Assembly (NCBI GenBank): GCA_030704615.1
Contig: CM060733.1
Coordinates: forward strand, 55,366,001 to 55,430,000
Direction: 5' to 3'
Source of the DNA: Takakia lepidozioides
Taxonomy: Eukaryota > Plantae > Bryophyta
Length of the DNA: 64,000 bases
In this document: positions 1 to 36,190 of the stretch, in pieces
Numbering within the stretch: the first letter of the stretch is position 1
How the letters are laid out: the number at the start of each line of letters is the position of its first letter
Made by a program: the position numbers and the translations under genes
Notes under the pieces: generated by a model
What the model was told of the DNA's origin: nothing
What the model saw: the letters and a program-made list of their open reading frames with translations, nothing else
Databases searched by the model: none

Positions 1-15
1 TCGCCTCAATCAAAG

Positions 16-1339: not shown

Positions 1340-1340
1340 A

Positions 1341-1857: not shown

Positions 1858-1859
1858 AT

Positions 1860-12211: not shown

Positions 12212-12370
12212 ACTGAAGGCAAAGCAATTCCTGTAAGCCCTCAGGAACCGCCGTATACGTCGTCTCTCTCCTCCGGTGACAATGGGTCCAATGTCAGGCT
12301 CCCAATTGTCCTCCGTAACTGCAACCTTAAGTCCAGTGGGCTTAGAGGTAGAGGACGCGTCCAGTGGTTG

Positions 12371-13864
12371 CTATGTTGCAACCTCTTGAGCAGTACTCCC
12401 TGCCTGCTCAGTCAATGACAAGGCCTCATCCTGCCCCATCATCTCATCCTTGAGGACCTCCTCAACCCGAGAAGAATCCCCAACCTCATCCATCACAGCC
12501 GCCTTGGCTGCCAACTCCCTCTGAACCTCGAGCACCTCCCACGTGTGCCATGGATGCATGCACCCCGTGGTCCTCACATGCTCGCCCCCACTCACTGCCT
12601 GTACCGTCTCGGTAGGCAGAGAGACCATCAAGGGAAGTGTACTCCGCACTCTGCGTTGCTCAGCTAGAGCCAAGCTGATAATCCAGGTCAAGCAATTGAG
12701 ATCCATTGCTTGCCCCAACACTTGACGACGTGATGCCTCAGAAAGAGACGACACCGCCGTGGTACCAGTGGTAAAACCCATTGCCCGCTCACGCTCGTCA
12801 GCATTAGGCTCCACTAATTGCTGCAACTGAGCATCCCACAGGAGGCCAGGTCCACTATCCTGGAAAACATGCGATCCTGGGAAGCTGAGCAGTGTAGGTA
12901 ATGCTGCTCGTGGTTGACCCACCTTGTTGACCACTGCCAAAGGCGAACGGTCATCGTGTCTCACACGCTGAGACTGCCTCCCTGTGTCCAGAATGCTATC
13001 CACTGTGAGATGTGCTGGCCGCTGCACCCCATCAAATGCACGCTTGAGCAGTGCGGGTGGCATCAAGTTAGTCCACCATAGCCGTGGACGATGAGCCCGT
13101 GACCCCACTGTAGCTGCATCTAGCAACACTGCTGACCCAAGCCACGACCGGACTTGATGCACACTGGCCATCACCCTGGCCCGAGAATCGCCCATCAGTG
13201 GCACATTCTCCAAGATGTATGCTGGAGATACAGCTTGATGAAGCTGCAAGTGGCGCAAAACCCGCACCATCTCCCAAAACAGACCCGACCTCGAGTCTCG
13301 CAATCCATTGCCATGCCCGGCTGATGAATGCCCTTGGCAGGGCCAACCTGCCACTACCAGATCAATGGAGCCAACCCGCTCCAAATCCTGCGCCCCCAGC
13401 AACGAAATGTCTGCTGGCAAGGCCTGCTGATATCCACGAATTGCAGACACTGACAACAACTCAGGGTACCGCTGCACCAATTGAGCAACATGGCGAAGTG
13501 AAACGCGTCGTGCAGTCTCATCCCTCTCCACATACAGGTAACGCCGAACTCGTACACCTGCCTGTAACACAGCAGCCAATCCGGTGCTGATCCCGCCAAA
13601 CAAGTCCAGAAGACAAATGCCTTCATCCGGATACTGCCACACAATAGGTGTGGTGTCCAATGGAGACAACTGAGGTGGTCCTGGTGCAATCCCCGCACTC
13701 TCCTCCTCTCCTGACGGTACAAAAGCCTCCACCCAGGCTTGTTGCACCCGTCGATCAGCATCCCGCTGCAAATCCTTGCTCGTGCCCCACAATGGAGTCT
13801 GAGCAACCATGGTAGGCAACTCCGCCATACCATACATGTCATCCTGCTCTCCCGGAGGTGGCAC
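12371..13864 (-). CDS. C5 cytosine DNA methyltransferase domain in pol (copy 2; catalytic motifs intact)
   Basis: 497-aa open frame with LDLFGG, GWPCQG, YILENV, RPRLWWTN, ERERAMGF and RQVLGQAM. Confidence 0.93.
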   Translation of the reverse strand: MPPPGEQDDMYGMAELPTMVAQTPLWGTSKDLQRDADRRVQQAWVEAFVPSGEEESAGIAPGPPQLSPLDTTPIVWQYPDEGICLLDLFGGISTGLAAVLQAGVRVRRYLYVERDETARRVSLRHVAQLVQRYPELLSVSAIRGYQQALPADISLLGAQDLERVGSIDLVVAGWPCQGHSSAGHGNGLRDSRSGLFWEMVRVLRHLQLHQAVSPAYILENVPLMGDSRARVMASVHQVRSWLGSAVLLDAATVGSRAHRPRLWWTNLMPPALLKRAFDGVQRPAHLTVDSILDTGRQSQRVRHDDRSPLAVVNKVGQPRAALPTLLSFPGSHVFQDSGPGLLWDAQLQQLVEPNADERERAMGFTTGTTAVSSLSEASRRQVLGQAMDLNCLTWIISLALAEQRRVRSTLPLMVSLPTETVQAVSGGEHVRTTGCMHPWHTWEVLEVQRELAAKAAVMDEVGDSSRVEEVLKDEMMGQDEALSLTEQAGSTAQEVAT

Positions 13865-13869
13865 ATCCT

Positions 13870-16523
13870 CTGAATGAGCTTGCCCTCAAGCAACTCTCTA
13901 GGCCACTCACTGCCGCTGTGAATGCTGCTAGTGTCGGCATCTTGCCTCGCTGGGCAACCGCAACTCTCCTATGAACGTCACAGGGAGCTGCACACGCCGG
14001 CCCTCCCCTGACTGCCATGCAGCCTATAGGAAGCTGACTCCTCCCAAAAATCCCAGGGTGAAGCCCATGGGGTACAACACTGCCCCACCAACCAGGACAT
14101 CGTATGAGACTGCGTCTGTCACAATGGCCTTGGCTCGCATCACTGAGCCATCTGTACGGTGATCCGGCCGTAGTCTGATAGCCAACTCACGCCGTGTCAT
14201 GCCCCGAGCCTGCTCCGATCCTCCCAGAGACGTCTGTATCTGGAAAGGACAAGGCTCTATATCCGCCTCCGTGAGGCCCAAGCCTGCAATAGCAGCTCTG
14301 CCCAGCATCAATGGCTGAGCTCCCGAGTCCAACAAGACCCGCAGTGGCCGGTACCTCTTGCCTGCCGGTCCACTCAAACAGAAAATGCCATCCTGGTTGT
14401 CTAACATGACAACTCCAGGTGTCACCATGGCGCAGCTCCATCAACCTGGCAGCTGCAGCTTGCCATGGCGCCGCCGTGGCAGTCTTGACCCTCAAATCCG
14501 AGGATCCCTCCGCACTACACCTCCCACTATCTCCGCAGAAGATGAATAACCTCCCCACTCTCACAGAGTGTAGTTGCCAGCCTAACACCTCAGCTGGTTT
14601 TACCCCCGGCGTCGCAATCATGGTAGCCGAGAACAATGGAGCCTGGCACACAGATGTGGCCGCTCCTAGCAGCACACTAGCTGCCGTAGCCTTGGCAACA
14701 CTAGGTAGTGGTGCTACCCGTGTAGCTCTCCCCAATGGCATAGTAACCTCCGCCTCGGTAACCGTCGGGCGAGAACTAGGTGCCATGGATGGCGTCGACA
14801 CTGTCTCTGCCAATGTGAATGACTGAGGAAGCCTAGCCTGACGGCTTGCCTCCCACGCTGTGGATCCAACTCCACCTCTGCACCTCGTGGCTCAGGAACT
14901 CGTGCTGCTCCTCGAGTCACGGCTGCAGCAGACTCCACCTGCACTAGTGGTAGTGCTGCTCCACACATGAATCCCATGCCTCCCATATCTCCTCCCTCAG
15001 GAGCAGGAGGTGGACCATCCGGCCTTAGAGCCGGTACCACCTGAGCTGTAGCCATGGCAGCGAGCCTCTGCTCTAGCTGCTGAAGCCGGTTGGCCCCTTG
15101 GTCAACACCCTGACCTCCGCGTCCTTGGCCACGTTGAGCTTGCCCTTGGCCTGCACCTCGTGGCTGGCCACCTCGTCCTCTCTGGCTGCTCCACCTCGCC
15201 CCCGGCCACCATTGTTCCCTTGGAACTGGCCTGGGCGCAACTCAGGATGCAAACCATAACACTGGGCCTCTCCATGCCCGTGCTTGCCACAATGCCCACA
15301 CTGCAACTGTGCAGGCTGTGCATGTGCCGACCCTTTGCCTCCCTCTGGGCAATCCTTCTTGACATGGGGTCCTCCACATGTCCAGCACACCACATCTGCC
15401 CGTTGTTGCCAGCAAATGAAGGGAGAGACCCCTGCATCTGAGGTCCTCTCTGCCCTTCCCTGAGCTTCACCTGAGCCCCCTTGTTGCCTTGAGCACGTTG
15501 AGGTAGTGGTTGGCTAGGAGCACCACTACCCCGTGGTGTCTCCTTAGCAAATCCCACCATGACCACTCGTTCCTCCACCATGTTGAGCTCTATCCGCTCT
15601 GCCAGCAAAAACACATTTGCTAAGGTGGGTTGGGCTGCTTGTAGGAGAGTTGCATCCCGCACCCTTCTCCTCAGCTCCTTGTCCAATATCCCATACCAGA
15701 ATTGGACTGCCTGAGCTTCCGTAACCCTTGGGTTACATTTATCAAGCGCCTCATGCGAGTGAAAGCCTCCCTCAAGCTCTCGGTCGGCTTCCGTTGGAAC
15801 TCTTGCAGCTCCGCAACTTCTCTGTCTCACCCTTGTAGTTCCCTCTCAACTCTTCGAAGAACTCCACAACAGGGTTGAGGCAGTGCACGGGTGCTAGTGC
15901 TGGTGCGGTAGTGGCTTGGGTGGACGTCGTAGCTACTGTACCACCAGTTCCACTAGTCCCACTGCTACTTGCTGAAGCTGCCGGTGCAGCGGCAGGTGTA
16001 GCCACTGCCCTCGTGGCTCTAGTGCCCCTAGTGATGGAGACATAGTCGGGTGACCAGTACATCCTCCACTCCTCGATCTCAACCTCATGCCCCCGCCTGA
16101 ACTCATGGTAATCATCCATAGGCGGCCCCTCAAGGTGCTGAAACAGCCCCTTCCATGCCATGAAAGGCGTAAAATAGTTGTGGATTGCGCATTTGCTGCA
16201 AATCACACCAACTATCAAACTCTTGGATAAAATCATCCAACTCGATGGTGCCCACCGCCCCAGAGTACCTTCGTGGCCCTTGGTAGCTCCATACATCTCC
16301 TCCATTGTGTCCCACAACAATGGCAAGAAACAACTTGCACCGCCGTATGAGTCCTCCTGATTCACAATCCGAATCAGAACCTTCCGTAGAAGACACAGGA
16401 GGTGAAGGTGGCCTAAACCACACACCTCGTCTCATGTACCCACTAGTATCGCTAGTGCTCGAACCGGCACTGTCCTTAGCAACTAGTGGCACCTCCGTGT
16501 TGACACTCAACCGGTCATGAACA
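13870..16523 (-). pseudogene. gag (two CCHC knuckles) + protease (copy 2)
   Basis: CWTCGGPHVKKDC, CGHCGKHGHGEAQC, ELDDFIQEFDSW and VLLDSGAQP; many indels. Confidence 0.82.
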
Positions 16524-17794
16524 TGTCCCTAACCCCCCTCCACAAGGTAACCGGGTAGAGAACTGTTGCGGCTTATGGTTTGGAATACTAAGTTCCTAAC
16601 ATAGCCTACACCTGTACCTGCATCCACCGCAAGCACTCCTATGGTTGGCTGGTCATTACCTCCAACCTCACCACAGAGAGACAATGATGGTCTGGCTGGT
16701 CATCACCCCAATCTCACCATCGACAACATGCTCTAGGACTGGCCGGTGATCAAATCCGGACCAATCACCTATAAAAACAAGCGCCTACACAAAACTAGCA
16801 TGGCGCACAGTCAAGCATGCATGTATGGAGGGGATCCAAAACACAAGAAATCAGGAGCGACAACTCCCCCACACCAAAAACAACTCACCGGTGTTTGCTC
16901 CTGCAATGACATACCCCAGCCAAACCCGGACTGACTCTTGCCTCCACCTACGGAAAGGTCTTGGCCTAATGAGAGGGTGGAAGAGAAGCTAAAGCAATGC
17001 CTAACCCCAACATTGCCCTCATCCCAACACTCTTCCTCTCCTCTCTTCCCTCACTTGCATGACCATGGGAATATCATGAAGATACTCCTCAAACCGCCCT
17101 CCACGAGCTTCAAATTTGGCCTTCAAGACCATGCCAGTCCTTAGGCAGTCCACCAGTGCCTCCACGAGTCAGCACAGGCCGTCCACAGGTCAACACGGGC
17201 CCACAGACCAGCACAGGCCCACACAGCTCACTGGTCACATCCGTCACAGTCCCACTGGCCACTGGGCACAGCCTGTCACAGCCCCTCATAGCCCGTCACA
17301 GCTCGCCACAGCCCTGTCACATCCCGTCACACGCCCGTCCTCATGCTGCTATTCATGAGCCATGAGCCATGAGCGGCATGAGCCATGAGCAGAGTCGTAA
17401 GTGTGGAAAAAAACATGAGCAGCACTATTTTCCATGAGTGTCCGCGGGAATAGGGTTTAGGGTGCCACGGTCATAGGGGGAGAAGGACCTCCCGATGAAG
17501 GAGGTTCGGCAATGTTATTTAGAATTATATATTGAAAGGCAATGTTTCGCGAATGGTAGGGTGGTACTGCTCTGTACAATGGGGGCCCATTTCAGCCTAC
17601 CAGCCATTTGCAAAATCACCCACACTCCCAATCCAAACGAAATGAGCAATGACGCATTCTCGGAACGATGGACACAGAATAGAATAAAAAGAGGGCACAA
17701 TGAGGTTTTTATTGATCCACATGAATTGCATTTGAAGCACGTCTACTGTGCTGATTGTGCCATCAAATTGAGCCCTGTGCCTACTGAATACAAG

Positions 17795-18564
17795 TCACGT
17801 TGTCAATGGGACTTCGACTGCTCTCAGAACTAGCTCATGAGTCATGGGGCTCCTCCATGTAAAGTCGATTGCAGCCGTTGTACCGCCCCTAGTGATGTTC
17901 ACCACAATGTCCTGCCCTTCAATCATACCACCATCGAATATGGAAATCTTCACGTTTTCGTCGTCCACACCAATGCGAATGTCCCCATACAATGGAGAAG
18001 AGGAGCGCACTCCTCGAGGAGAATAGGTCTCTCCGATGGAGTCCACCCACGTCCAGTGGCAGCAGTTCCACCGCAACAGCATAGCAGTGCGCCTTCTTCT
18101 GCATGGGTGACCGTCGTAGCTGGGAAAATCGGAATCGAGGATGCGCAGGAGCCACGGACTCCTCAGACCAAGATCGTCACCCCGCTCGAAGGCGTAGTGG
18201 CTACGATATACTCAAAAGCCACCAATGTTTCCACAATCGAACCAGTATCTTCTGTGTAATCTGTGTACCAGATAACAATGTCTCCCGATGTGGCCGAATA
18301 CATTGCATAATCGATGCCTCCAAAGGGGCAGTCGTCCCGGTTCCGGAAGCACGGCATCCTTGCAAAGGAGGACCTGAGGACGACTTGGATGCCGATGACC
18401 TTGCGGACAGCTACGAAGCCCTTAGATTTTGGAAATGATACGAAGCGGAAGAGCAGTCCGGCCTCCAATAATGGAGCATCTGGGTCACACGTACCCACCG
18501 ACGGAGGTGGAACGTGTTCATCACGCCAGCGGTGGATGAACCCATACATCTTTCTCATCAACAA
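17795..18564 (-). pseudogene. Unknown cargo ORF, paralog 1
   Basis: RWNCCHWT..D..GETY...PLYGDIR...SIFDGGMIEGQDIVV is shared with 19092-19424. Confidence 0.55.
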
Positions 18565-18789
18565 GTTATAGTTTGAGATCTGCCACGAAGTCCATCCCCC
18601 GGATGGAAATTCGGCGCCGCATTTACATCGAAGAGGGGATGGACTTCGTCGTGTCCAGTGGCTATCGGCCCACCTGGCAGTGACTGCCCATAGTTTGCAT
18701 GGCAGGGTAGGAAACTGAAACGGCTACATTCATGCAGCAGCCAATCTTCATCGGTCCAGGATCCTGTAGGGGGGAAATTTAAATGTGCC

Positions 18790-19424
18790 GTGTTTGTGAG
18801 GAATTGCAGCGTTAGCTTGAACTTTTTCCAGCCACCGACATCCGGGAGCTGCTGTCTGAGCGTACTCCGCTACTCTTTTTTCGTGCCGCCGAAATCCAGC
18901 CGACTGCCCTTATCATGGCCACGATTATGCTATGTTCAAACCAGAATCAGACATCATTGTCTGGCTCTCTGTTTTCACAGACGCTGCTGGAATCAAGCAA
19001 GAGTCTTTGCGCGCAATGGAGTATCTGGAGGGCTATTACCGCTTTGAGCGAGGTGAGGGCGAGGGTCAATGCGGTCCGTGGGTCCTGAAAATTGTTGACC
19101 TCGATATACCAAGCAGGGATGCCGGACAGATCACGCACGGCCTCGCTTTGGCGCTGGAACTGCTGCCAGTGGACCAGGGAGGACGGCACCGGGGAAAACT
19201 ATATACGTGCAGATCACTCCGCTCTTCCAGTGTATGGAGACATTCGGCTGAGTTGCGAAGACGAATCGCACGGGCACATGAGGCCCACAGTGACCTTGTC
19301 AATGTATGATGGTGGTATCATTGATGGACATGACATTGTCGTCGGCTCCAGCAAGGGCAGCAGAACGACCGAATTGCAGTTTACCTCGAGGTTCAGTGAT
19401 GAGCTCGAAGTTCCGTCGACGTGA
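18790..19424 (+). pseudogene. Unknown cargo ORF, paralog 2
   Basis: RWNCCQWT..D..GENY...PVYGDIR...SMYDGGIIDGHDIVV. Confidence 0.55.
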
Positions 19425-19665
19425 AGCCCGGGCTTAGTTTTGTCTGCAGTTGGTAAATGTGAGACATCGTGTCCGATCATAAACCCATCGTACCTCACTT
19501 CTGTATGATTGTGTTTCATTGTGTTGAATAACTGTCGGAATTGGCCCACTGTTTACAATTTGATGTCTCATTTCTACAATGTGTCTGTCCGGATGAATAT
19601 AGCAGAGTAACCGGTATGTGAGTCATGTGTCAAGAATATACCAGAGTAACGCCATGTCGGACATT

Positions 19666-20378
19666 GAAATGCGGCACCGCATGTCGGCATCGAAATGCGG
19701 CGCCGCATTTCCATGTCCGAAATTTCCATGTGGGACAAGAAAATGCGGTGCATCATTTCCGTCCAGGTACACGAAATACCAACACGGGTCTATAAATTGT
19801 TTGGCATTGCAAATGCGGCGACGCATTTCCAGCTTGGCAATGGAAACTTCTTTTTGGACAAGGGAATGCGGTGCCGCATTTCCGTCCAACACTTCGAAAA
19901 GTGTGACATTTCCGACCAGCGCGATGGAATGCGTTACCGCATTTCCGAGAGAGGGTCTGCAAATGGACAAATTGCGATGTCCGTTCTGGAAATGCGGCGC
20001 CGCATTTCCATGTCCGTCATCGACTTTTTTTTACAATGGAATGCGGTGCCAATTTTTGCTGATGGGCCTGCAGTTCGAACAACGACCATCCCCATATGGA
20101 AATGCGGCACCGCATTTCAATCCCGCCATCTTCGACCTCCTTGTTCGACCTCTGTAAGCGTGGTGGCATCCATGCAATGAGCGGGAGAGGCCAAAACTGG
20201 CGTGTGGACAAAGGAAATTTTGGAAATGCGGCACCGCATTTCCAATTCAGATTACTTTTTACTATGCCAACATTGAAATGGAAAATTTAGTCCCTCCCCT
20301 GTTTTGGAAATGCGGTGCCGCATTCCAAAAGAGGTTCTTAGAGTTGCCAAAATTTTGGAAATGCGGTGCCCCATTTCT
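19666..20378. repeat. Palindrome cluster 1 (~12 x GGAAATGCGGYRCCGCATTTCC)
   Basis: Read directly; mostly non-repeated spacers; lies downstream of gene B. Confidence 0.9.
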
Positions 20379-20514
20379 GATTTTGGGAGCGTCGTGGTTT
20401 GGGCGATTGTGTGGCTGGAATGCACACTGGAGAGGGGTCACGAATGTCGGGCAGAATTTCCTTTATATACTCTGGAAGAGAATTTACATTTACAGAGACT
20501 TCATTAAAATTCTA

Positions 20515-23500
20515 TTAATCTTGAAAATCATCCGAATCCTCATCCTGTTCTAGACTGTCCTGCTCCTCCTCCACCCCCTCAGTGCCTCTCTCATCTCCAG
20601 CGGACTGCTCGTTGGCCAGGCTTTCGAAAATCCCATCTTCCCCTTGCGGAACTGTCCATCTCACCTCCGTTGGGTCGTCTTCCTCCCTGTCTGCGTCGCT
20701 CTCATCCGCTGAATCACATATGTACTTTCGTACCCGTCTACCTGTCTGAGCTGCTGCCAACTCTTTCCTTATCCTTCTGTCCTCCCTAGCCCTCTCCAAA
20801 ATCTGCTCTACTTTACTGGGATTCTCACTTCTTCTAATCGCTGTATTTGCGAGTTTAGCTGCATAACTAGGAAGGGAGTAGTCCCTCACCGGGCTCGTCA
20901 TGAAGTCGGCCCTCGCAAAGAACGGGACATTCTTCCTGGCAGGAAGTGTAGGCCCTACATGTTTCGACCCGGACCCTGCAATCCTGCACATGACAATCAT
21001 CAACGAGACTAATGAGAACCACAGTCGGGAAATTCGTTTGACATAAATGACCCAGAAGGCTTTGCAAACTTACAATGTTTGCACTCACTCGTATCCGGGT
21101 TCTCCTCCGCATCAATGTCCACTGTGTCTTCCTCGGACTCCGACGAATCCGAGGAGACTTCCGCTCTGTCGGGAGCCTTCACATTCCGTTGCAGCCCTCC
21201 AGATGGGATCCCCACACGGATGAATCTCCTCGTAGGCAAAGAGGTGCCGGTCGGAAAACCGCCCAGCCCACATTGAGGCACCTGTTACAATGCCATCCAC
21301 ACATTACCACATGGCGCTTCAGATGTTGCGAACTACATCCTAACGAGAATTTGCAGAACAGCAGAGATCAAGATTCTGCATACCTGTCCCACAGATGAGG
21401 TCGAGCACTGTGCCCTCCACGTCTGTGCATGTCTCCATAATTGTCTGAATGAAGGCAGGGCTCCGAGTCCGTGAGTACCGCAGGGGTTCCGTTGAGTGAG
21501 GCTATGAGGGAGAGTTCCTTGGGAACGTTGTTGAACAGAACGTCGTAATCGAGTGGGTCGCAGTTCGGGTCAACCTTTCCTCCCTCCTTCCGGAAAGCAA
21601 AGGTGGAGTTCTCCTTCACAAAGCAGTATGCATCGAACTGCTTCGTCTGCATACACAGGGGGAAAACGATTAGAAACCGAATGCGGCACCGCATTTGAAA
21701 AACACCCAAGCAAATGAATGGACGAGTGCCAGTGTCGTAATCACCTTCTTCCCTTCCGACCGAAGGCCCAGTGTGTTGATGCACGTCCACTTCTTTTTCA
21801 GAATCGGGACGGCGCTCTTGCGGGTCCACTTCGCAATTCCTGTCTGAGTGTTTTTTCCTCTGCTCGCCAGGACAACCACACAGCCTCTGTCGTCCAACAC
21901 CATGCGGGCAAGCCCGAATCCTTTCTTCCAAAAGTCCTCCGAGTACCTGTTCCAAGATGGCAAAGCTTGCAGTCCTTCCACAGGCTCTCCGTCCGGAATA
22001 TCCAAGATGATCATATCGCAAGACCACTCGGTGGCATTTCCGCCCCTCCTACAATCCTTGTCTGCACACACCCTCTCAAAGAACGAGACCATATTCTGAA
22101 ATCCTGGGGTGTCGGAAGGCTCTTCGGCAGTCGCCTTCTTCAGTGCTCTGCCCTTCAGACCCTCCATGGTCTTCATGTATGCCAACTTGGCTGCCCGTCC
22201 ATCCAAAGCCGCCACTCTCATTTACACACTGGACTACTGTTTCGGGAGCCTTTCGGCCTCTTCATTTCCACCGGCTCGAAAGGGTGCCCCCCTGGGGGGT
22301 TGAAGAGTGCCTTCTTTGCCGAGCCAGTTCTCGTGCCTCTCGTGACAACGGTGGGCACAGGGGAGGCAGCCTGCGTTTGGGGGGGTGGGCTGGTTGCAAA
22401 GTCTCCATCGGAGTCCTCTTCCTCACCCTCTTCCTGAACAGGCTGTTTCTGCTTCTTCGTTTTGGCGGGTGTCACAACAGCTGCTCCTTGCTGGCGAGTC
22501 CTCTTCTTCGACCCCTTCTGTTGGGCCTGCACAGCTGCATCCACCGTCTTTTGTGCCATCTCAGCTGCCTTTCTGGATTCTTCCAGAGCAGCAGATTCCT
22601 TTGCCGACTTGGGCCCAGCAGGGACACGTCTTTCCTTTCTCTTCTCTTCTGCCAAGGCGTGCAGATCTTTCTCAGACTCGTCAACAATACCGCCAGACAT
22701 GTCCAGGTACCACGGGCATCCAACGAGATGCGCGGGATGCCATTGTTTCTGCATCTCGGGTGTGTAGACACAGCTTGGGCCCGCCACGGTCCAAGCCATG
22801 AAGAACGGGGGCTCTTGAGCCAGGGCCCCTGTCTGAAGGAGCACGTATTTCATATACCTGCAAGGCAGTCAGCATGCGTGAGCAAAAGTTGAGACCAACC
22901 TACTGGCAGAGTGCCACCGAAAACATAAAATGCGAATGCGGTGCCGCATTTCCGAGACAAACCTCGTAACCAGGCTTCGCATACAAGGGCAGCTGTGCTT
23001 CACCTGTAAACAATTCGCATTGCAGCTTTCCCCGCTCCCTCCTGATGTGTAAACTCCACGCTCCTTCTTGCTGTCTGTAGCTCTCTGGCGAAAAGGTTGT
23101 CCTTGTACGCACATCTGAAACGTGTCACGTAGTCTTCCAATGTCTGTGTTCCATCCCATTTGACGTACAAGCCGAACGAATTTGTGTGCATTACGACTTG
23201 CTCCTTCGCATTCGACATTACCTGCGATTCCCAAATGCATTGTCACGTAGCAGTTCAGGGAATTCATGTCAGAAAAGCAAATCTGGGGAAGTACCTTGAA
23301 TTACCTGGAACCACCAAGTCATACGGTTGAGCCACATCCACTGCAGGGTCGGAAACTTCAGTGGAAAAGACCACATTGTCCTTATGCTCTCGGATGCATT
23401 CCAGATCGACAGCCACCGTGTCTGCCATTTCCGATCCAATGTCAGGAGCTGGAAGAGAGTGGCTATTGCTAGGAAGGAACTTCAGTGCATTGAAACCTCA

Positions 23501-25716
23501 CCTTCTTTCGCCTCCACACATGCCGTTGAGAGGTGATGCAGTTTCTCCAATTGCATGGTCGGCTGCATGGCCCGAGAATAGTGTTTTGCAATCTCGGGGA
23601 TGAAGTCCTTTCCAAGTGCCGGATCTGCAATTGCCACCAGCTTCACAAGCTTTGACTTGTATTTGGTTCTGGACTTGACACCGGCTTCCTTCAAGTGCTC
23701 AGTCAATGACTGCAACGTTTTGACCTGCCCCTCACTTTCCATGAAGAAGCGTTTGGCATGGGCCAAATCCAGCTTGATGTTTGACTGCCAACAAAAACAT
23801 GCAGAAGCGTTACATTCGATTCATGTGGAAACATTACTGAAAATTGGGGAAGGATGAGCAGAGGGAAATTGGAGACGACTTACTTCGTATATCACCTCCA
23901 CCATTCCATCCATAGTGAGACGATACCATGTCCGGTCTGTTTTTGCAACGGCTTTCTGAATGAGCTCGGGCTCCAGCATTTCCGCAAACATCTGCGGATC
24001 AGTGAGACCAGTTTTCCTCACCCTGTACAGCATATGTGCCATGTGGGTATGCACGTACGCATTCTCAGTGACCCTGCAAGGCACACTCTCCAGTTCAGTA
24101 CACGGAAGCACGGAAACAAACCAGAATGGAAACCGAAATGCGGCACCGCATTTCGAACGTGCTAGGGAGGGTATGAGTATCTTACGAGTTGAGGTCCGCC
24201 ATGGCATTCTTGAGCAGGGAGGAGTCTGCCGCCTTCACCTTGAGGATGACACACTCCACCATGTAATGCCAGCCAATGTGCTTGGCATGGTTCTGCTTGA
24301 TGTACTCCCACCAGGCGAGAAGTCGGTGATTCCCGTCCCACACAAAGACATTTTACCCGACATATGGCCGAAGTCGGGATCACCCTTCAGCGTCGCCTCG
24401 AATTCGTGGTTGCGAGTGTGCCAGTGGGTATCCCACGTTGACAATTCATCGGCAGTGGGTCCACGAGTTTCGCCGTCCTCATTCTCAATGGAAACGTAAA
24501 ACGCTGCCGATCCCAGACGGTACCCTTCTCGAAATGCGAACTTGAGCTTATCCACATCTCCGGGAAGGGCCTGCCTGACGATGGGAAGGGAGACCATGCG
24601 ACAGAGTGGGATTCGAAGAGTCCGCTGGAATACCCTGCTGCCCAGAACTCTGCCAATGCTACTGTGTGTCTCCTCCAACATTTTATCCGCTGCACTTTTG
24701 AAATCCTCCGGAGACATGTCTGTAGGTGCGTAGTGGCTGAGCAGCTGGAGCATCCTCAACTGGAGCTGCACTCTGGGGCCTGTGCGGGCAATTCTGCCAT
24801 TGCAGAGGCCTCCTCCGGGCCTGCTTGCTCATCGGTGGTGAGGTCTTGCTGCGAACGTTCAGCGGCAGCACCCTCCTCCGGTACCAAATCGAGATCAACG
24901 GTCGATCCCATTGCCTTCGCGCTGCAGCAGAGTCGGCCCCAACATCTGCAGGCGGGAAATCCTCCAGGAACTGAGCTTCAGCTCGTGGAAGCGGTTTTGC
25001 GGAGATTGTTCGCCCGTCGCCCTGATTGCCTTCTGCTTCCTCATCCTTGCAGGTGAAGGTGTCTGCTGCAATTGAATCTGTCTTCTACCCTGCTGCTTCA
25101 TTCGCGTTGGGGGGGGTGAATCGGCCTGAGCCGGTTCAGAAGCCAGTAGAGGGACGGGCTGCTTCTTCTTCGACTTTGCTGGAGAAGGGCCCGACCCCTG
25201 CTGGCGATTCTCCATGACCGAAGAACGCGAGTCGATCTCTGGGACTTTGAACTTGCCCTTCGAAGACGCGTCTTTGAATCGCAGAGGGCTAGGCCCGGCA
25301 GGAATACCCGCGCTCGGGGATCGGGTGGGTGTACGTGCTGCAGCTAGCTCCTCGGACTCTTCCTGCGGCTCTTCGGATTCCTGCGATCCCTCCAGCACGT
25401 CCACCTTTCCTGTTAGGCATGCAAACATGTTCTGCATTCAAGTCTCCTAGCATTCAGTCTAAGAATTACAGAAGCAAAATGGGGGGTTCGGTGCTCGATC
25501 AGCTGCGCGCAGCCCGATCGCATGGAGCTCTCACTGGTGGCTGGGTTGCCTGAGTGGCCTGCTGCTCGGAGATGGCAATCTCCTCCTGTAGACGCATCTG
25601 CTTCCTCCCCTTCGGCATTGGCCTACGTCCGAAGTATAATTTCCGGAGCTTGCGACGAGGTCTCCTGTCTGGTGCACGAACTCCCCCCTCTCAGGTTCGA
25701 GCATAAGAAGAACAGA
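20515..25716 (-). pseudogene. ParB/Srx + N6/N4 MTase-like gene B (multi-exon)
   Basis: VWDGNHRLLAW (~24310-24345, after a frameshift), CDMIILDIPDG (~22000), RSPAFIQTIMETCTDVEGTVLDLICGT|GASMWA..RHLFAYE. Intron positions shared with gene A. Start approximate. Confidence 0.75.
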
Positions 25717-26053
25717 GAGAGGGAAAAGGGGCAAAGAGTGCAGATGGAAAGGGCGCGAGAGGGGTGACTGAGGAGACACGACAAAAGTAGATGAAACGGC
25801 GGTGATGCACCACTTGGGTTCGAAAGGGTTGGACGAAAGTGTCTCCTCGTGGAGTTTGCGTCATTACGAAATTCGAATCGTTGAGGGTACGCCTGCCGTC
25901 CAAAAAACAAACATCATTATCCAACGGTCAGGCCGCGCGCCTCATGCCCCTTCAGTCAGATAGAGTGCCGACATGTGCAGCAATTCCGTTGCTCCACGTG
26001 TTCACATTTCAAGGCATTTCCGTCCCAGCGTCTGATGAGTTGGAGCGAAAATG

Positions 26054-27681
26054 CGAATGCGGCGCCGCATTTCCGTTAAGTACCATCACTGCTACACATC
26101 CGTACTTGTTGGAAGAAAATGCGGCACCGCATTTCGTTCCACCTTCACATACCTTAGTTGTTGAACGGAAATACGGTGCCGCATTTCCGTCCCACAGCTC
26201 CATGTATGAGATTCAAAGGGAAATGCGGCGCCGCATTTCCGTTCTGGAATGTCGAAAGGTGCGATTGGGACGGGAATGAGGCACAACATTTCAGTTCCCG
26301 TGGTTCATGATTTTCAATGTGAACGGAAATGCGGTACCGCATTTCCGTTCCCACTTCACATACGTTAGTTGATGAATGGAAATGCCGTGCCACATTTCCG
26401 TTCGGGAAAGTATAGAGGTCTCACCTGGACAGAAATGCGGTGCCGCATTTCCGGTCTGGAAAGTTGAAGGTCTCACATGGATGGAAATGCGGCAACACAT
26501 TTCCGTAGCACAGCTCCAGGCCCATATACAAAACGGAAATGCGGCGCCGCATTTCCGTTCTAGAATGTCGGAAGGTGCGACTCGAACGGAAATGCGGTGC
26601 CGCATTTCTGTTCCCGTTGCGCACGATTTTCAGTCAGAATGGAAATGCGGTACCGCATTTCCGTTCTGTAGAGTATTAACGTCTGACGCTGCGGAAATGC
26701 GTGCCGCATTTTCGTTCCACAGCTCCATGCCTCACATACAAAACGGAAATGCGGCGCCGCATTTCCGTTTTGGAATGTCGGAAGGTGCGACTCCGACGGA
26801 AATGCACCGCATTTCAGTTCCGATGTTTCTCAGAACGGAAATGCGGTGCCGCATTTCCCTTTGCGTTCTGGAATGTTGGGAGGTGCGACTCGGATGGAAA
26901 TGCGCTGCCGCATTTCAGTTCCGATGGTTCACGATTTTCAGTCAGAACGGAAATGCGGTACCGCATTTCCGTCAGGTGCGACTCGGATGGAAATACGGTG
27001 CCGCATTTCAGTTCAGATGGTTCACGATTTTCAGTCAGAACGGAATGCGGTGCCGCATTTCCGTTCTGGATAGTATGAATGTCTCAAGCGGTCGGAATTG
27101 CGCGAAGCTGTCGGAATCGCACTCGGCTCCATGCATCAGATACAAAATGGAAATGCGGCGCCGCATTTCCGTTCTGGAATGTCGAAAGTGCGACTCGACG
27201 AAATGCGGTGCCGCATTTCCCCATAATTCTCAATCAGAACGGAAATGCGGTACCGCATTTCCGTTCCACTTCACATACCGTGCGAATGAAAATGCGGTAC
27301 CGCATTTCCGTTCTGGAGAGTATGAATGTCTTTTAAGGACGGAAATGTGCTGCAGCATTTCTATCCCTCAGCTCCATGCATCAGATACAAAATGGAAATG
27401 CGGCGCCGCATTTCCGTTCTGGAATGTCGGAAAAGTGCGACTCGGACGGAAATGCGGTGCCGCATTTCTGTTCCCGTTGTTCATAAATCTCAATCAGAAC
27501 GGAAATGCGGTACCGCATTTCCGTTCCACCTTCACATACCGTGCTTGCTGGATGGAAATGCGTTACCGCATTTCCGTTCTGGAGAGTATAAAGGTTTCCC
27601 CCGGACGGAAACTCGGTGCCGCATTTCCGTCGCTCTGGTGCATGACCAAGATGCAATACGGAAATGCGGCGCCGTATTTCC
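26054..27681. repeat. Palindrome array 2 (~32 units, period ~52-53 bp)
   Basis: 22-bp palindrome with ~30-bp spacers falling into ~5 recurring types. Confidence 0.93.
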
Positions 27682-28095
27682 GTCCACCAGCAATCGAAAG
27701 AATCACTCGGGACGGGAAATCTGGAACCTGAATGGGTTGCATTGTTCCGAAACAACACAATTGCGGCCAGTCTTGATGAGCACAACTTGGTTGTCTGACC
27801 GTTTTAACAGCAGTCCTGGCACTTGTCAGTGCGAACGTTCCTGTCTGCACCGAGAATACTGCTGGATCCACCCTCAGGAGAAACTGTCAGGAGATGTTAT
27901 TTCGTCGCCGAATCGGCCATCATTGTCATACTACTGGCTATGGAATCAAACCTCCCACCTTCATGCATGTAGCTTGAAACAATACTTCCACTTCAATGTG
28001 CGACTTCCAATCGTCGATGGACTCCGCAGATCCACTTAGATGGTGCCTGTGAGCCTTGGTCTGTCGCTATACTGAACCTCGCACTTGCCAACTCC

Positions 28096-31022
28096 GTGCG
28101 GTTTTTGGCTCCGAATTCCTACGCTATAGTTTGCTGTCCTCCGCAACTTGGGAGAGCCTGGATCCCAAACGAGGGAGGACTTTGCAGAGTGACTGAAACT
28201 TACCTTTGTTCCAAATTCAAGCTCAAACCGGGCACAGTTTATTTGGAAGAAGAAAGGAAGGATGTTCCTGGACAGGTTGACGAGACCATTGTCGTGCTAG
28301 GTAACGACGGAGGTTGCGGAATCGAATGGCACGTTCCCCCGTCAGACACCATCCTGTACCGAGCTGTGGGAATGCCCATTCCCTTTCCGAATCAGTCGCT
28401 GCCCACACCATCCACAAAGGAGTCCGGAAACCGAGAGGCGGCCACTGCCAACAGAGAGGTATGCAACGATAATCATTCCCGACCTGGACCGTCAAGACCC
28501 TCCATAGCTTCTCGTGTGGACGTATTCGACATTTCCGACGAGGAAGATGATTGCATTGAGGTACCCATGTCCTCCACACGGTCGTTCCCGGCATGGACGT
28601 CTCTGTAGGTGCTACGCATGTGCCCTCGAGCATAACTCCAACCCGGTCCATTGTGCAGCTCCTACGACAACATCACCTCGATGGTTCTCGCTCCGAGCTG
28701 GCTGCTCTCGACTATGCCAAATTCCCAGTCAGAAAGGTAACTTTTCTGCCTCCCGAAGTCGATGGCAATGTCATCTTCGAGTTTCCACCTGTTTCTTCGT
28801 CAAAGAAAGCCTCCGGGATGTTAACAGACATGGATCGAAAGCATGACGGACACCCCTGGTGTGTGACGAAGACCAGTAGCACGAAAATTGCTGATGGTGT
28901 TCGTGTACGATATGTCCTCTGTGCGGGGAAGCTGAGGTGCCTCAATCCCACCTGCTTCCACTTTCTCTCCAAAGGAGGCGAGAAACGAGACGGATTGGAC
29001 TGGCACAACGCATCATCCATTCATTGTCTCCAGCCAAGCTCCTGCGGGTTCTTTCAAGTGTGCACATTGCAAAGAACCACCGACGTGCATGTCCATGTGC
29101 AGAGCCAAGCAATATTACGTTATCCATTTGCTCCCGGACTTGACTAGAGCTTGCATACACGTTGGGGTCCACTGCCACCCCTTGGCGAGAGGCAACATGC
29201 GTGAGGCTGTGCAGGAAGCACACGACATCATAAAAGAGGAGGTGAAATTGAGCCCCGGAGCCAGACCAAAGCAGATTCAGCTGAAGGCAGCCCACAAGAT
29301 TGCTCTTGGCAAAATCATGTCTGAAGATGGTTCCGACCGAGAGCCCTTGACCGAAGACGAGATGCGTGACCTCTTGGAGTCCGTCTCGCACGTTTGTAGT
29401 CCGAATGTGCGGAATCACATCGTATCTTGCAAGCAGGAGTTCGGCAGGGGGTCGGACATGTACTCAATCCTGGAGGTGAAACGAATGACTGGATATGACT
29501 ACATCCAAGGTAGCAGGTTTCCAGGGCAAGGCAGCGAATCCGATCGTTGTTACATTTTCAAAATGTCGACGTGTGGGCCTGGGAGTGGAGTCGACTTGGT
29601 CACTCGCATGACAACTGGAAACTTGTCGAATGCTTGGGTGATGTTTGATCACATCAAGCGAATTACAAACCATCAGTGGGTGACTATGGGTGCGCATGTT
29701 TATGACTATCACTCCAAGAGGCTCATGACGATTGCAATCTGCGAGATGAAAGGGGAGGACACACAGTCCGAGATGCATCTGTGGGAGGGCATAAACGAGC
29801 AGATGGCAAGGGCGGGATTGCCAGAGCCCAATTTCAGGGGATTCATGGCAGACAACGCTCAGGCCAACTGGGCAGCGGTGCGGCGTGGTACGGTGAGGAC
29901 CCCAATGTTCCAATGGAGGGGAAAGAGAGATCCTGTGGATTCCATTGGATGCAGAGTCTATCCCACTACACTACCAAATTTGTTGCTAGCTCATTCCAGG
30001 CTGAACACCGTGTCCTTTGTACGGCGTGGAAGGATGCACCCACATTTGATGACGCGGAGGTTAAGTTTGCTATCATCGAGGCTTGGTGGAACACGTCAGG
30101 TGCAGTGGAGACAACCAATCTGGGAGCATTGCACAGCTGGTTGGGGTGGTGGCATTTTCGGTATCGACAGTTCGGACAGTACATGCGGGGAGGTAGGCTG
30201 CTGTCAATTTCGTTCATTTGTCTTTCTGTTACGGACATTTCGATTGGTCCCTCACATTTTTGTGTCCTTCTAGGAGCGGTGCTTGGATTCCGACACGGAC
30301 ATGCCGAACACGAATATGGCAGAATCGGTCCACTCCTCTGGCGAGCGTCTTCTGCCGCACATCTGGTGGACGTAGTGACGGCCACAACGGAGGACATCGA
30401 CAGAGCAATCATGCAGCAAGCCACGTACTACAAGTTCCTGAGCGGCAAACAATGGGGCTTTGGGCCGGACAGGGAGGAATTGTTGGTACGAACAGCTTCG
30501 AGGTCCAAGAATCCAGTGAAATGGGCGACAGCATTGCGAGAGAAGATCAAAGGGACGCCTCTGGCACCGCAGTAGGTGAACACCTAGAGGGGGACGTCCG
30601 GACTCGCCCTGTCAGGCGGAGGATTGAAGAGGAACCCGGGTGCGAAGAGGATTCCTGGAGATCCGACAGGAACATTCGGACAGCACCTCGAGGTCCCGTC
30701 ATGTTGCCGCACAATGTGTCTTCCAGCAGTGGAAGCCCAAGAAATTCCAGATCGCCGTCGCCTTCAACCGGGGATTTCGTGCAACAAATTCCCACCGCTC
30801 CCTTGCCCCACATTCCGCCCGCTGTTATGCAGTATGGCCAAGCCATTGTGGAGACGACTGTGTCTGCCTCACAGTGGAGAATTGCTCGCACAAAGCCGTC
30901 GTTTCGAGGAAGGTGTTCCGCAATTCGTGTGGATACACGGCAACGTTGTTTAGAGATGATAAGGAGGAATCCAGATGGGGCTGTCCTGCTCCTACTTTAC
31001 AGGAAGATTTGTCCATGCAAAG
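28096..31022 (+). pseudogene. Mutator-like (MULE) DDE transposase with GCM-like N-terminal zinc domain
   Basis: DGHPW..C.GKLRC.N..C / C..KQY / HVGVHCHP (GCM-like); WVMFDH, GFMADNA, CGFHW and NTNMAESVH (D, D, CxxH, E). Frameshifts present. Confidence 0.75.
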
Positions 31023-32996
31023 TCCCCACTCTCACAGAGTGTAGCTGCCAGCCTGAACACCTCAGCTGGTCTTATTCCCGGCGTCGCAATCATGGTAGCC
31101 GAGAACAATGGAGCCTGGCACACAGATGTGGCCGCTCCTAACAGCACACTAGCTGCCGTAGCCTTGGCAACACTAGGTAGTGGTGTTGCCCGTGTAGCTC
31201 TCCCCAATGGCATAGTAACCTCCGCCTCGGTAATAGTCGGGCGAGAACTAGGTGCCATGGATGGCGTCGACACTGTCTCCGCCAATGTGAATGACTGAGG
31301 AAGCCTAGCCTGACGGCTTGCCTCCCCACGCTGTGGATCCAACTCCACCTCTGCACCTCGTGGCTCAGGAACTCGTGCTGCTCCTCGAGTCACGGCTGCA
31401 GCAGACTCCACCTGCACTAGTGGTAGTGCTGCTCCACACATGAATCCCATGCCTCCCATATCTCCTCCTCAGGAACAGGAGGTGGACCATCCGGCCTTAG
31501 AGCCGGTACCACCTGAGCTGTAGCCATGGCAGCGAGCCTCTGCTCTAGCTGCTGAAGCCGGTTGGCCATGCCTTGGTCAACACCCTGACCTCCGCGTCCT
31601 TGGCCACGTTGAGCTTGCCCTTGGCCTGCACCTCGTGGCTGGCCACCTCGTCCTCTCTGGGCTGCTCCACCCTCGCCCCCGGCCACCATTGTTCCCTTGG
31701 AACTGGCCTGGGCGCAACTCAGGATGCAAACTATAACACTGGGCCTCTCATGCCCGTGCTTGCCACAATGCCCACACTGCAACTGTGCAGGCTGTGCATG
31801 TGCCGACCCTTTGCCTCCCTCTGGGCAATCCTTCTTGACATGGGGTCCTCCACATGTCCAGCACACCACATCCGCCCGTTGTTGGCCAGCAAATGAAGGG
31901 AGAGACCCCTGCATCTGAGGTCCTCTCTGCCCTTCCCTAAGCTTCACCTGAGCCCCTTGTTGCCTTGAGCACGTTGAGGTAGTGGTTGGCTAGGAGCACC
32001 ACTACCCCGTGGTGTCTCCTTAGCAAATCCCACCATGACCACTCGTTCCTCCACCATGTTGAGCTCTATCCGCTCTGCCAGCAAAAAACACATTTGTTAA
32101 GGTGGGTTGGGCCGCTTGTAGGAGAGTTGCATCCCGCACCCTTCTCCTCAGTTCCTTGTCCAATATCCCATACCAGAATTGGACTGCCTGAGCTTCCGTA
32201 ACCCCTTGGGTTACATTTATCAAGCGCCTCATGCGAGTGAAAGCCTCCCTCAAGCTCTCGGTCGGCTTCCGTTGGAACTCTTGCAAGCTCCGCAACTTCT
32301 CTGTCCTCACCCCTTGGTAGTTCCCTCTCAACTCTTCGAAGAACTCCACAACAGGGTTGAAGGCAGGCACGGGTGCTAGTGCTGGTGCGTAGTAGTAGCT
32401 TGGGTGGATGTCGTAGCTACTGTACCACCTGTCCCACTGCTACTTGCTGAAGCTGCCGGTGTAGCGGCAGGTGTAGCCATTGCCCTCGTGGCTCTAGTGC
32501 CCCTAGTGATGGAGACATAGTTGGGTGACCAGTACATCCTTCACTCCTCGATCTCAACCTCATGCCCCGCCTGAACTCATGGTAATCATCCATAGGCGGC
32601 CCCTCAAGGTGCTGAAACAGCCCTTTCCATGCCATGAACGGCGTAAATAGTTGTGGATTGCGCATTTGCTGCAAATCACACCAACTATCAAACTCTTGGA
32701 TAAAATCATCCAACTCAATGGTGCCCACCGCCCCAGAGTACCTTCGTGGCCCTTGGTAGCTCCATACATCTCCTCCATTGTGTCCCACAACAATGGCAAA
32801 GAAACAACTTGCACCGCCGGTATGAGCCCTCCTGATTCACAATCCGAATCAGAACCTTCTGTGGAAGACACAGGAGGTGAAGGTGGCCTAAACCGCACAC
32901 CTCGTCGTGTACCCACTAGTATCGCTAGTGCTCGAACCGGCACTGTCCCAGCAACTAGTGGCACCTCCGTGTTGACACTCAACCGGTCATGAACAT
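31023..32996 (-). pseudogene. gag region of Gypsy copy 1
   Basis: Collinear with 14552-16523; zinc knuckles present. Confidence 0.85.
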
Positions 32997-33239
32997 GTCC
33001 CTAACCCCCTCTCCACAAGGTAACCGGGTAGAGAACCTGTTGCGGCTTATGGTTTGGAATACTAAGTTCCTAACATAGCCTACACCTGAACTTGCATGAC
33101 CATGGAATATCATGAAGATACTCCTCAAACCGCCCTCCACGAGCTTCAAAATTCGGCCTTCCAGACCACATGTCAGTCCTTAGTCCACCAGTGCCTCCAC
33201 GAGTCAGCATAGGCCATCCACAGGTCAACACGGGCCACC

Positions 33240-34262
33240 ACAGACCAGCACAGGCCCACACAGCTCACTGGTCACAGCCGTCACAGTCCCACAGGCCACT
33301 GGGCACATCCTGTCACAGCCCCTCACAACTCGTCACAGCCTCAAAGGCCTCAGGCACAGCCTGTCACAGCCCCTCACAGCCCGTCAAGGCCTCAGCACGA
33401 CCTGTCACAGCAGCCGTCACAGCCTCAAAGGCCTCAAGCACGGCTGTCACAGCCCCTCATAGCCCATCACAGCCCCAAAGGCCTCAGGCACGGCTGTCAC
33501 AGCCCTCACAGCCCGTCACAGCCCCAAAGGCTCAGGCACGGCCTGTCAAAGCCCCTCACAGCCCATCACAGCCCAAAGGCTCAGGCACGGCCTGTCACAG
33601 CCCTCTCAGCCCGTCACAGCCCCAAAGGCCATGGGCACGGCCTGTCACAGCCCTCACAGCCCGCAGCCCAAAGGCCATGGGCACGGCCTGTCACAGCCCC
33701 TCACAGCCCGTCACAGCCTCAAAGGCCTCAGGCACGGCCTGTCACAGCCCCTCACAGCCCGTCACAGCCCCAAAGGCCATGGGCACGGCCTGTCACAGCC
33801 TCACAGCCCGTCACAGCCTCAAAGGCCTCAGGCACGGCCTGTCACAGCCCTCACAGCCCCAAAGGCCATGGGCACAGCCTGTCACAGCCCGTCACAGCCC
33901 CACAGGCTCAGGGCACAGCCTGTCACAGCCCCGCACAGCCCGTCACAGCCCCAAAGGCCACTGGGCACAGCCTGTCACAGCCTGACACAGCCCGTCACAG
34001 CCCCACAGGGCACAGGGCACAGCCTGTCACAGCCCATCACACCCCCACACAACAGCCTGTCACGCTTGCCACAGCCTGTCACAGCCCGTCACAGCCCGTC
34101 ACAGCTGTCACGTGCCACAGCCCGTCACAGCCCGTCACAGCCGTCACCTGTCACAGCCCGTCACAGCCCCCAGGCCACGGGCACAGCCGTCACAGCCCCA
34201 CAGGGCACAGGGCACAGCCTGTCACAGCCCATCACAGCTTGCCACAGCCTGTCACAGCCCCA
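33240..34262. repeat. GTCACAGCC-based minisatellite in the Gypsy 5' leader
   Basis: Dozens of tandem variants; a short version occurs in copy 2 (17230-17339). Confidence 0.9.
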
Positions 34263-34789
34263 CACATGGCCGCTATGGCAGTTTAGCCATTTCTCCAAGG
34301 GGTTTAGCCACGCCAAGCTAGGGTTTGTGTCTCTTGGACTCTAGGCTTCTTCCACCGAGCTATGGTGGCTGTGAGGAAATCAGCAAGGTATCCTTGCTCT
34401 TTCGGCTCCCCACACCACCATAGTAGCCCTAAGCCATGAGGTGGTTGCCAACAACCAAGCCTTCTTTCTCACTTAGCCTCCCCAAACACGCCACTAAACT
34501 CAATGGAAACAACCAAGCACTGCCACTAAACTCAATGGCAAACACCAAGCCCTGCTGGTTCCAGCCTTGTGAGCACTCATTCAAGCACTTCCCTCATTGG
34601 CCATAGCATCTGTCTTAGAGCCTATTCCAGCCCTCTACACCTGTTGCTTCAAGAGTTGCGCTCCCTTCAAGCTTGAAGTTGAAACCCCAACTCACATAGG
34701 CCCTACAAGTGCTGTTCTTTCACTCTAAGTGGAAACCAGCCCTAGACCTTCCGTTCTAGCTCTCTAAGGCTTGAAAACAAGAGCCTCAA

Positions 34790-35115
34790 TGGGCTGAAGG
34801 CATGCTCCACACATGCCCCACTCTCACCATAAGAGAATCAGCTCCTTTGCTTCATTTCTTGCACCCACAAACCTGATAATACAAGCTTCAGCAGGCTGAA
34901 AGCATGCTCTACATGCCCTACAGGGAAACCAGCCCCTTCCTTCCTTTCTTGCACTCCCACACCTAAAAGTGCAAGCCTTCACGAGGCTGAGAGCATGCTC
35001 CACACATACATTGCCCTCACATAAGGGAAGTCAGCCCTTCCCTCTTCCTTGCTTGCCCTCCAAGCTGGATGAATACATTCTCCACACATGCAACCTCTTC
35101 ACACAGATATCAGCC
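34790..35115. repeat. Degenerate ~100-bp tandem repeats in the Gypsy leader
   Basis: Recurring GCTGAA.GCATGCTC..CACATG...CAGCCC units (3-4 copies). Confidence 0.55.
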
Positions 35116-35786: not shown

Positions 35787-35802
35787 GCTGATCTTTCTCG
35801 AG
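35787..35802 (-). promoter_or_regulatory. Self-priming primer-binding site
   Basis: Abuts X1; complementary at 15 of 16 nt to LTR positions 35973-35988; no tRNA-type TGG start. Confidence 0.7.
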
Positions 35803-36131: not shown

Positions 36132-36190
36132 CCTCATATATGATGGAAATTCCCATTTCAGTATTGTTTGATGGAAATGTGGCACTGCAG

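Follow-up and report, generated by a model that had tools for sequence, protein, structure and literature searches.

Why does a transposable element carry single copies of a palindromic repeat within the introns of one of its own genes, and which protein might read them? The question is raised by a stretch of 64,000 nucleotides (nt) from Takakia lepidozioides (contig CM060733.1, positions 55,366,001 to 55,430,000; hereafter the window, whose own coordinates are used below). In this window a putative Mutator-like element, here termed P1, carries a transposase gene and a spliced accessory gene, whose product appears to combine a ParB/Srx-fold domain with a methyltransferase (MTase)-like domain and which is therefore referred to as the ParB-MTase gene. 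A second copy of this gene, P2, belongs to a sister element in the same window. The intronic placement of the palindromes is confirmed here as a real, family-wide trait.

Palindromic sites in and around the ParB-MTase gene

The palindrome of P1, represented by the 16-mer AATGCGGYRCCGCATT, has the consensus AATGCGG-YR-CCGCATT and is often longer, extending to GGAA...TTCC. The window contains 28 exact copies, 10 copies with one mismatch, four with two and four with three, while 50 shuffles of the window give expectations of 0, 0, 0.02 and 0.56 for the respective classes. Of these copies, 45 of 46 lie within 18608–27678; the 46th, at 37619, is the variant of the sister element, and apart from that variant the P1 motif is absent from the 50 kb of the window beyond the element. 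Two arrays with 41 copies flank the ParB-MTase gene on both sides. Array 1 (19668–20375) comprises 12 palindromes with dissimilar spacers downstream of the gene, and array 2 (26056–27678) comprises 29 palindromes at a spacing of about 53 nt, located between the divergent ParB-MTase and transposase genes. The scan of the window revealed no palindrome in the transposase gene (27700–31022) or at the mapped element end near 17346.

Outside the arrays, the copies stand singly. Exact copies are found at 24137–24152 in intron i1 (24185–24074), directly after the exon encoding the ParB/Srx fold, at 22935–22950 in intron i5 (23003–22858), which also holds the respective own motif in distant relatives, and at 21680–21695 in intron i6 (21744–21647), within the methyltransferase-like region. 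The copy at 18608–18623 has one mismatch, one of its halves equals the motif of the sister element, and it sits between two divergent cargo open reading frames (ORFs), whose first ATGs are at 18558 (minus strand) and 18932 (plus strand). A first-pass annotation of this DNA had located these copies near 21679, 22934, 24135 and 18605, the first three in introns, none in exons and the last between the cargo ORFs, and both placements were borne out. All three single in-gene sites are intronic, an outcome with a chance probability of 0.004 given 950 intron bases in a gene of 5116 bases. A palindrome is carried by three of the nine predicted P1 introns, the other six having no copy, and each intronic palindrome is at least 33 nt from the nearest splice site.

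The ParB-MTase gene of P1 (20515–25630, minus strand) is predicted to encode an acidic N-terminus, a ParB/Srx-fold domain (DGNHR), a helical middle region, a linker and a beta-class amino-methyltransferase-like domain (DIPD ... DLICGTG). This copy carries several frameshifts, and its start and first intron are uncertain. Introns i6 (98 nt), i5 (146 nt) and i1 (112 nt) all have GT-AG borders and lengths that are not multiples of three, and the similarity between the P1 and P2 proteins breaks off at matching intron borders. The spliced i1, i5 and i7 junctions of P1 align continuously to the full-length homologue P0207, a moss protein of 1147 residues (source name Ceratodon purpureus). Two homologues are intronless at i1 and read through, and 18 of 23 other predicted fragments terminate one residue past i1. 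The i6 junction aligns to P0207 in the wrong frame and is uninformative there; this intron is supported by the sister gene P2, by an in-frame stop and by an intron at the equivalent place in three relatives (L012, L014 and L019). The splicing direction of the gene is shown by one contig in which i3 and i4 are spliced, from a run guessed to be RNA, none of the listed runs being recorded as such. One contig (X11) retains 49 nt of i6 unspliced and then enters dissimilar sequence. Contig joints running from palindrome to palindrome were considered as deletions and rejected, these being array contigs aligned to the single sites. In one run, 41,203 contigs map to the gene region (20450–25950), most of them 95–100 % alike, and many contigs from the same organism are without several of the P1 frameshifts, which suggests that the element family is large and young.

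The sequence of the palindrome itself bears signs of constraint. Within the P1 arrays, identity amounts to 0.84–0.87 for the 16-mer and to 0.28–0.33 for the distal spacers. The CpG dinucleotides of the arms are intact in 80 of 90 cases, while the centre reads TG 18 times, CG 11 times, CA eight times and TA eight times (n=45), as if the centre of the palindrome were free to decay and its arms were not.

Intron sites across the family

A scan of metagenome contigs yielded 80 loci of the family, 43 of them distinct, with conserved exon order and, in six distinct loci, a divergent transposase gene upstream. A palindromic upstream array was detected by a core-seeded search in 18 of the 35 stretches with upstream sequence (P1 included), shuffles giving at most two sites. 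The common core YGG-YR-CCR is found in 15 of these 18 arrays, each with individual arms, for example GGAAATG in P1, CATT in L005, CAACTTT in L014, CTACTTT in L019 and CTTCTCT in L021.

The comparison of introns with exons across the family, which the first-pass annotation had envisaged, was made with a matrix trained on 111 upstream-array sites only, from 13 AT-rich loci; L005, P1 and three loci that had converged on another palindrome of their own repeat unit (L012, L031 and L054) were left out of the pool. Held out from training, the 42 gene bodies contained 20 sites in 13 loci, with 1.6 expected, and none of these sites fell in mapped coding sequence, which makes up 44 % of the 83,410 bases. 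Single sites at i5 account for 11 of the 20 (nine placed between donor and acceptor, two by their distance from exon 4), and the other nine are located in the intron before methyltransferase motif IV, seven in L016 and two in L077. Within the AT-rich group, one site lies between the i5 donor and acceptor in nine of the 14 loci with exon 6 mapped. The i5 junction corresponds to residue 664 of P0207 in all cases. In L004, an unrelated, non-palindromic unit occurs upstream and recurs as an array in i5. A tree of 27 rows, excluding 85 % clusters with fewer than 150 mapped residues, joins P1 with P2 as sisters (support 100/99), distant from a 20-row AT-rich clade (99/99); L004 stands separately. 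The own motif of the element thus occupies one intron, i5, in three separate lineages.

The arms of the intron sites follow those of the upstream array of the same locus. When eight arrays were ranked by their match to an intron site, its own array took ranks 1, 1, 1, 1, 1, 2, 2 and 5, being best or second in seven of eight cases; the nominal P of 1e-4 is overstated, since relatives share arms. The 73 kb of upstream sequence hold 144 sites (training stretches included), against one site in 114 kb of far flanks, and the P1 motif is absent from the 735 kb of loci. The upstream array of L077 (5388–6842) consists of 26 copies of ATGGTT-N5-AACCAT, while its intron has two sites of the CAACTTT type, so that a change of motif is possibly in progress there. 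Two further loci, L039 (+4522/+4672) and L048 (+4625/+4767 from the ParB exon), have two sites just past the gene, the position taken by array 1 in P1.

In P2, intron i5 (37293–38159, plus strand) is expanded to 867 nt and holds nine copies of its own site, GGAAATT-CGG-YR-CCA-TTTTCC, in 95-nt units together with a second repeated motif; every copy of the P2 site lies within this intron. The second motif, GGCTAAGTCCCTAG, and its reverse occur 13 times in the intron array (37398–38028), alternating with the palindrome. At the end of P2 intron i1 (36173–36190), a sequence overlapping the acceptor resembles the P1 palindrome with both arm CpGs deaminated, which may be due to chance.

The first-pass annotation had taken the dispersed placement in non-coding gaps as a sign of selection for candidate binding sites along the whole element and as hard to explain by tandem slippage. 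Selection is supported by the reuse of the same intron for the own motif in three lineages, by the match between intron-site arms and the upstream array, and by the preservation of the palindrome against near-random spacers. The extension to the whole element does not hold, in view of the palindrome-free transposase gene and element end, and neither does the objection to slippage, as tandem growth acts inside these introns in the sister element, in L004 and in L014. The argument from exon avoidance is weak when taken alone, because coding constraint excludes any inserted sequence from exons.

Candidate reader of the palindromes

The first domain of the ParB-MTase protein has homologues in 195 clusters. 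Its predicted structure in P0207 was matched to KorB (Z 8.2, root-mean-square deviation 2.5, 93 residues aligned), PadC (Z 7.4), sulfiredoxin (Z 6.8) and SerK (Z 6.2), the top eight rows all being ParB/Srx folds, and the residues G-N-H-R are kept in 42 of the 54 homologues in which the motif was located. The N-terminal domain is accordingly predicted to adopt a ParB/Srx fold with a GxxR motif. In sequence comparisons, Pfam gave no match for any P1 exon and no passing match, ParBc included, among 23 homologues of the ParB exon; searches of solved-structure sequences with the ParB and transposase alignments returned chance rows, with no ParB or GCM entry; and a ParB pattern run against one genome per prokaryotic species gave 76 candidate stretches and no confirmed relatives. 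For the second domain, PF01555 (N6_N4_Mtase) matches P0207 at residues 903–1119 (E 4.9e-07, above the cut-off) and is the sole Pfam family found for this protein at E up to 1. The same part shows weak matches to DpnA and CcrM (E 0.05–1.4), and motif IV precedes motif I, the beta-class order, in both P0207 and P1. The methyltransferase exon alone retrieved no homologues among 1032 candidate longer proteins. In the P0207 model, no folded structure was obtained for the methyltransferase part; alignments A5–A7, in which short exon pieces were misplaced, were left out of structure prediction.

The palindromes may represent selected recognition sites for self-targeted anti-silencing by a dimer of the ParB-MTase product, a reading guided by analogy with known systems whose chances we regard as about even. 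Protein dimers on double-stranded DNA recognize dyads of fixed length whose two central bases are free to vary, and the palindromes are presumably bound by a protein. Since the ParB-MTase gene has sites around it and within it, while both the transposase gene and the mapped element end have none, the binder is probably the accessory protein; the transposase would act at the ends. A dimer of this ParB-fold, methyltransferase-like product would be loaded onto the arrays and the sites in introns and would protect the shared promoter region, along with its own gene, from silencing by the host. Introns would be the sole places within the gene that can take up a site at no cost to the coding sequence, and lone intron sites could expand into arrays. 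The outcome would be anti-silencing rather than self-repression, as suggested by the analogy with VANC proteins and by the higher CpG retention in the element (observed/expected ratio 0.72–0.84 in the P1 genes, as opposed to 0.40–0.55 for the retroelements and 0.45 for host DNA on the flanks).

Alternatively, the transposase might bind the sites through its Cys/His-rich N-terminal domain and activate its own copies, the ParB-MTase gene merely supplying introns. We consider this rather unlikely, even though the largest array, array 2, lies directly upstream of the transposase gene. The N-terminal part of the transposase shows a likeness to zinc fingers of the GCM type, and the P1 half-site a likeness to their target ATGCGGGY; however, the transposase alignment shows no sequence match to a solved GCM domain or to Pfam GCM, and the half-sites of the AT-rich group have nothing in common with ATGCGG. 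Moreover, the palindrome-free element end carries another repeat that is common to P1 and P2 despite their differing palindromes, which points to the accessory protein as the reader of the latter. A precedent for a role of the transposase is AtMu1, whose transposase is sufficient for the sequence-specific activation of cognate copies, according to the available part of the report (10.64898/2026.08.24.746577).

Two further explanations dispense with a reader encoded by the element. Array units could have been seeded neutrally, copied elsewhere in the element by conversion or repair and surviving only in introns, with the i5 copy inherited. Coding constraint alone would account for their absence from exons, site 22935 agrees in 16 of 24 flanking bases with the first array 2 copy (the median being 8.5), close relatives have conserved not just the i5 site but its flanks too, and a test of variation among copies was not significant. 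Neutral seeding is nevertheless improbable in view of the array cores, which are kept among near-random spacers, of the survival of arm CpGs where the central CpG varies, and of the reuse of one of eight or nine introns in lineages whose introns are otherwise unalignable, with arms updated to each array. The sites might also serve a host transcription or chromatin factor, or form RNA or cruciform hairpins acting in splicing, small-RNA production or recombination. The perfect or near-perfect dyad, the location of array 2 within a divergent promoter region and the switching of partner at the palindrome in some contigs would agree with such roles, which are still improbable: a fixed 2-nt centre makes a poor hairpin loop, the unit of L004 is not palindromic, and the arms differ between the sister subfamilies P1 and P2 in one genome, a difference more in keeping with an element-encoded, co-evolving reader than with one supplied by the host.

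Self-targeted anti-silencing by the ParB-MTase product has its own weak links, namely the identity of the binder and the outcome, and a number of observations weigh against it. The array statistics are biased through choice on the motif, and the copies are not independent. When copies from four DNA runs were compared, i5 had 17 variable places, all of them outside the 16-mer, a weak result (p=0.12; 0.05 for 22 bases), and the high CpG content of the element may merely reflect its youth. None of the listed contig pieces spans the i1, i5 or i6 junction, the introns there being predicted. Across the family, no palindromic upstream array was found in 17 of the 35 stretches, no i5 site in five of the 14 loci with exon 6 mapped and no in-gene site in L001, L018, L022 and L037, and the L004 unit is not palindromic. 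Inheritance accounts for part of the i5 sites in the AT-rich group, so that few independent events stand behind them (P=0.05 if counted as five). The array search was seeded with the core; unseeded searches with upstream motifs gave 11 in-gene matches in four of 18 loci and 10 in three of 20. Three loci with simple repeats (L022, L052 and L064) were left out of these unseeded tests, two L008 matches that are part of a separate inserted repeat were dropped, and 'outside mapped coding' does not always mean an intron, one L014 match lying in the exon-6 linker. As to the protein, sulfiredoxin and SerK kinases fit the same fold, so clamp behaviour is not implied by it. No helix-turn-helix (HTH) was seen after the N-terminal domain in the P0207 model, where the structural match stops near residue 389 and is followed by a small helical motif, a 64-residue helix and a middle region of low confidence. 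The canonical catalytic motif of amino-methyltransferases is (D/N/S)PP(Y/F/W), and the family has non-canonical versions (DIPD in P1, DILD in P2, DIPE in L001, DIPW in L019 and DTPF in P0207); the methyltransferase-like domain may be a binding module only.

One of the closest parallels is provided by the VANDAL transposons of Arabidopsis. In the available portions of the reports, VANC proteins bind motif repeats in the introns and intergenic regions of their own family (PMC5735166) and lift silencing along the element (PMC5735166, PMC10398659). As in P1, these elements combine a transposase with an accessory gene and carry a short family-specific motif in intronic and intergenic tandem repeats, not in exons, which differs between related families (PMC5735166, PMC10398659). 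VANC motifs are, however, non-palindromic and 8–9 nt long, whereas a 16–22-nt dyad with a core kept across distant plants is found here, and the accessory protein of the present family combines an N6_N4_Mtase domain with a fold predicted as ParB/Srx. The element would thus work like VANDAL/VANC without being a member of that group, from which it is set apart by Pfam and fold rather than by direct alignment to VANC. Clustered family-specific motifs are also shared with Spm/TnpA and AtMu1, in which an element-encoded protein is described, in the accessible part of the source, as binding such motifs and activating cognate copies (10.64898/2026.08.24.746577); unlike the terminal TnpA sites, the present sites are internal and gather around the accessory gene, the mapped end having none.

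The predicted N-terminal fold, the GxxR motif and the dyad site are features in common with ParB/parS, KorB and VirB/virS, and the 7-2-7 layout of the palindrome equals that of parS. Unlike bacterial ParB clamps, the protein is encoded by a spliced eukaryotic transposon gene, with no HTH seen beside the N-terminal domain and with a methyltransferase-like fusion. According to the parts of the reports available, the ParB-type VirB loads at inverted repeats, slides and lifts silencing (PMC10770331), and KorB silences at long range (PMC11790492). A bolder proposal, which we regard as distinctly unlikely, is that a bacterial clamp of the ParB type has been co-opted by a transposon family of land plants: a nucleotide-gated ring would load at parS-like palindromes in arrays and introns and slide along the element, and the fused methyltransferase-like domain would write or read a self-mark, so that every subfamily would possess a co-evolving anti-silencing code of its own.

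The beta-class motif order and the PF01555 match in P0207 recall the eukaryotic bacterial-type amino-methyltransferases, as far as these are covered by the portions of the sources available, such as Marchantia DN4MT1, rotifer N4CMT and those borne by DIRS1; DN4MT1 has TSPPY (10.1101/2021.02.12.428880) in place of the D-[IT]-P-x found here. The accessible part of a review of eukaryotic adenine methyltransferases mentions transposon-borne methyltransferase domains, those of DIRS1 being thought inactive, and ParB-HTH fusions in algae and fungi (PMC4738411). The ParB/Srx fusion and the palindrome-array layout were not found in the available parts of PMC4738411 or 10.1101/2021.02.12.428880, and no published description of the element was found in the literature, with subscription journals and bioRxiv supplements outside the scope. 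So far, sequence-specific self-targeting has been a matter of a few transposon families of Arabidopsis and maize. If the proposed reading is true, the present family would represent a further, independent instance, found in other land plants and assembled from bacterial parts (a ParB/Srx fold and an amino-methyltransferase fold). It would offer a testable code of one common core with subfamily-specific arms, two subfamilies being present side by side in one genome, and hence a direct test of co-change between a protein and many scattered sites, as well as of the spreading of an effect along the element from few sites, an open question for VANC. Otherwise, annotators would label these genes hypothetical proteins and would regard the arrays as satellites.

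The transposon and its surroundings

The transposase body (28100–31022, plus strand) is broken, being cut by a retroelement at 31023, and contains a Cys/His-rich N-terminal part and the motifs FDH, FMAD, CGFHW (CxxH) and AES, which we take to be of the Mutator type. Its 23 longer homologues (35–44 % identity) keep the first D in 15 cases, the second in 21, CxxH in 16 and E in two, most being cut before E, and a SWIM finger is present in the full-length homologue P0016. No Pfam MULE match was obtained. By its sequence motifs, the element would nonetheless be classed as Mutator-like, with a DDE transposase containing CxxH and a C-terminal SWIM finger. The displaced C-terminal tail (SWIM region) of the same transposase family is located at 7452–7605 (plus strand), 23 kb to the left of the body, and the block 7452–31022 lies at one retroelement breakpoint (14544/14552); the separation of tail and body may result from permutation or recombination, or from an error in the assembly.

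The likely element end (17346–17480) carries CATGAG repeats and is 70 % like the end of the sister element (40584–40674). Terminal inverted repeats, which together with target duplications of 9–11 nt mark Mutator-like elements, were not found: the end at 17346 is unmatched by the stretch ending at 8310, and both ends abut retroelement sequence. The P1 20-mer had no exact match in viral contigs. The two related cargo ORFs, arranged head to head (17795–18558, minus strand, and 18932–19424, plus strand), have no Pfam match and share a ...YGDIR...DGG.I.G.DIVV stretch; the P2 end is without them.

The P2 gene is split into a 5' part (1–1151, plus strand), which runs from the ParB exon to the start of intron i1 at 1089 and is interrupted by a long terminal repeat, and a 3' part (36132–40400, plus strand) with the exon-intron layout of P1. 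A 35-kb block comprising the retroelements and element P1 is inserted in P2 intron i1, and the P2 halves (1089–1151 and 36132–36190) share CCTC at the junctions. The Gypsy-type retroelement copies (1152–17336 and 31023–36131) have a C5 cytosine methylase domain before the reverse transcriptase and a PHD finger after the integrase (Pfam), resembling the methyltransferase-bearing retrotransposons reportedly described by de Mendoza and colleagues. The flanking DNA appears to be land-plant-like host sequence, with an intronless gene of the GRAS family (53928–56405) and a peptide deformylase exon (61731–62186).

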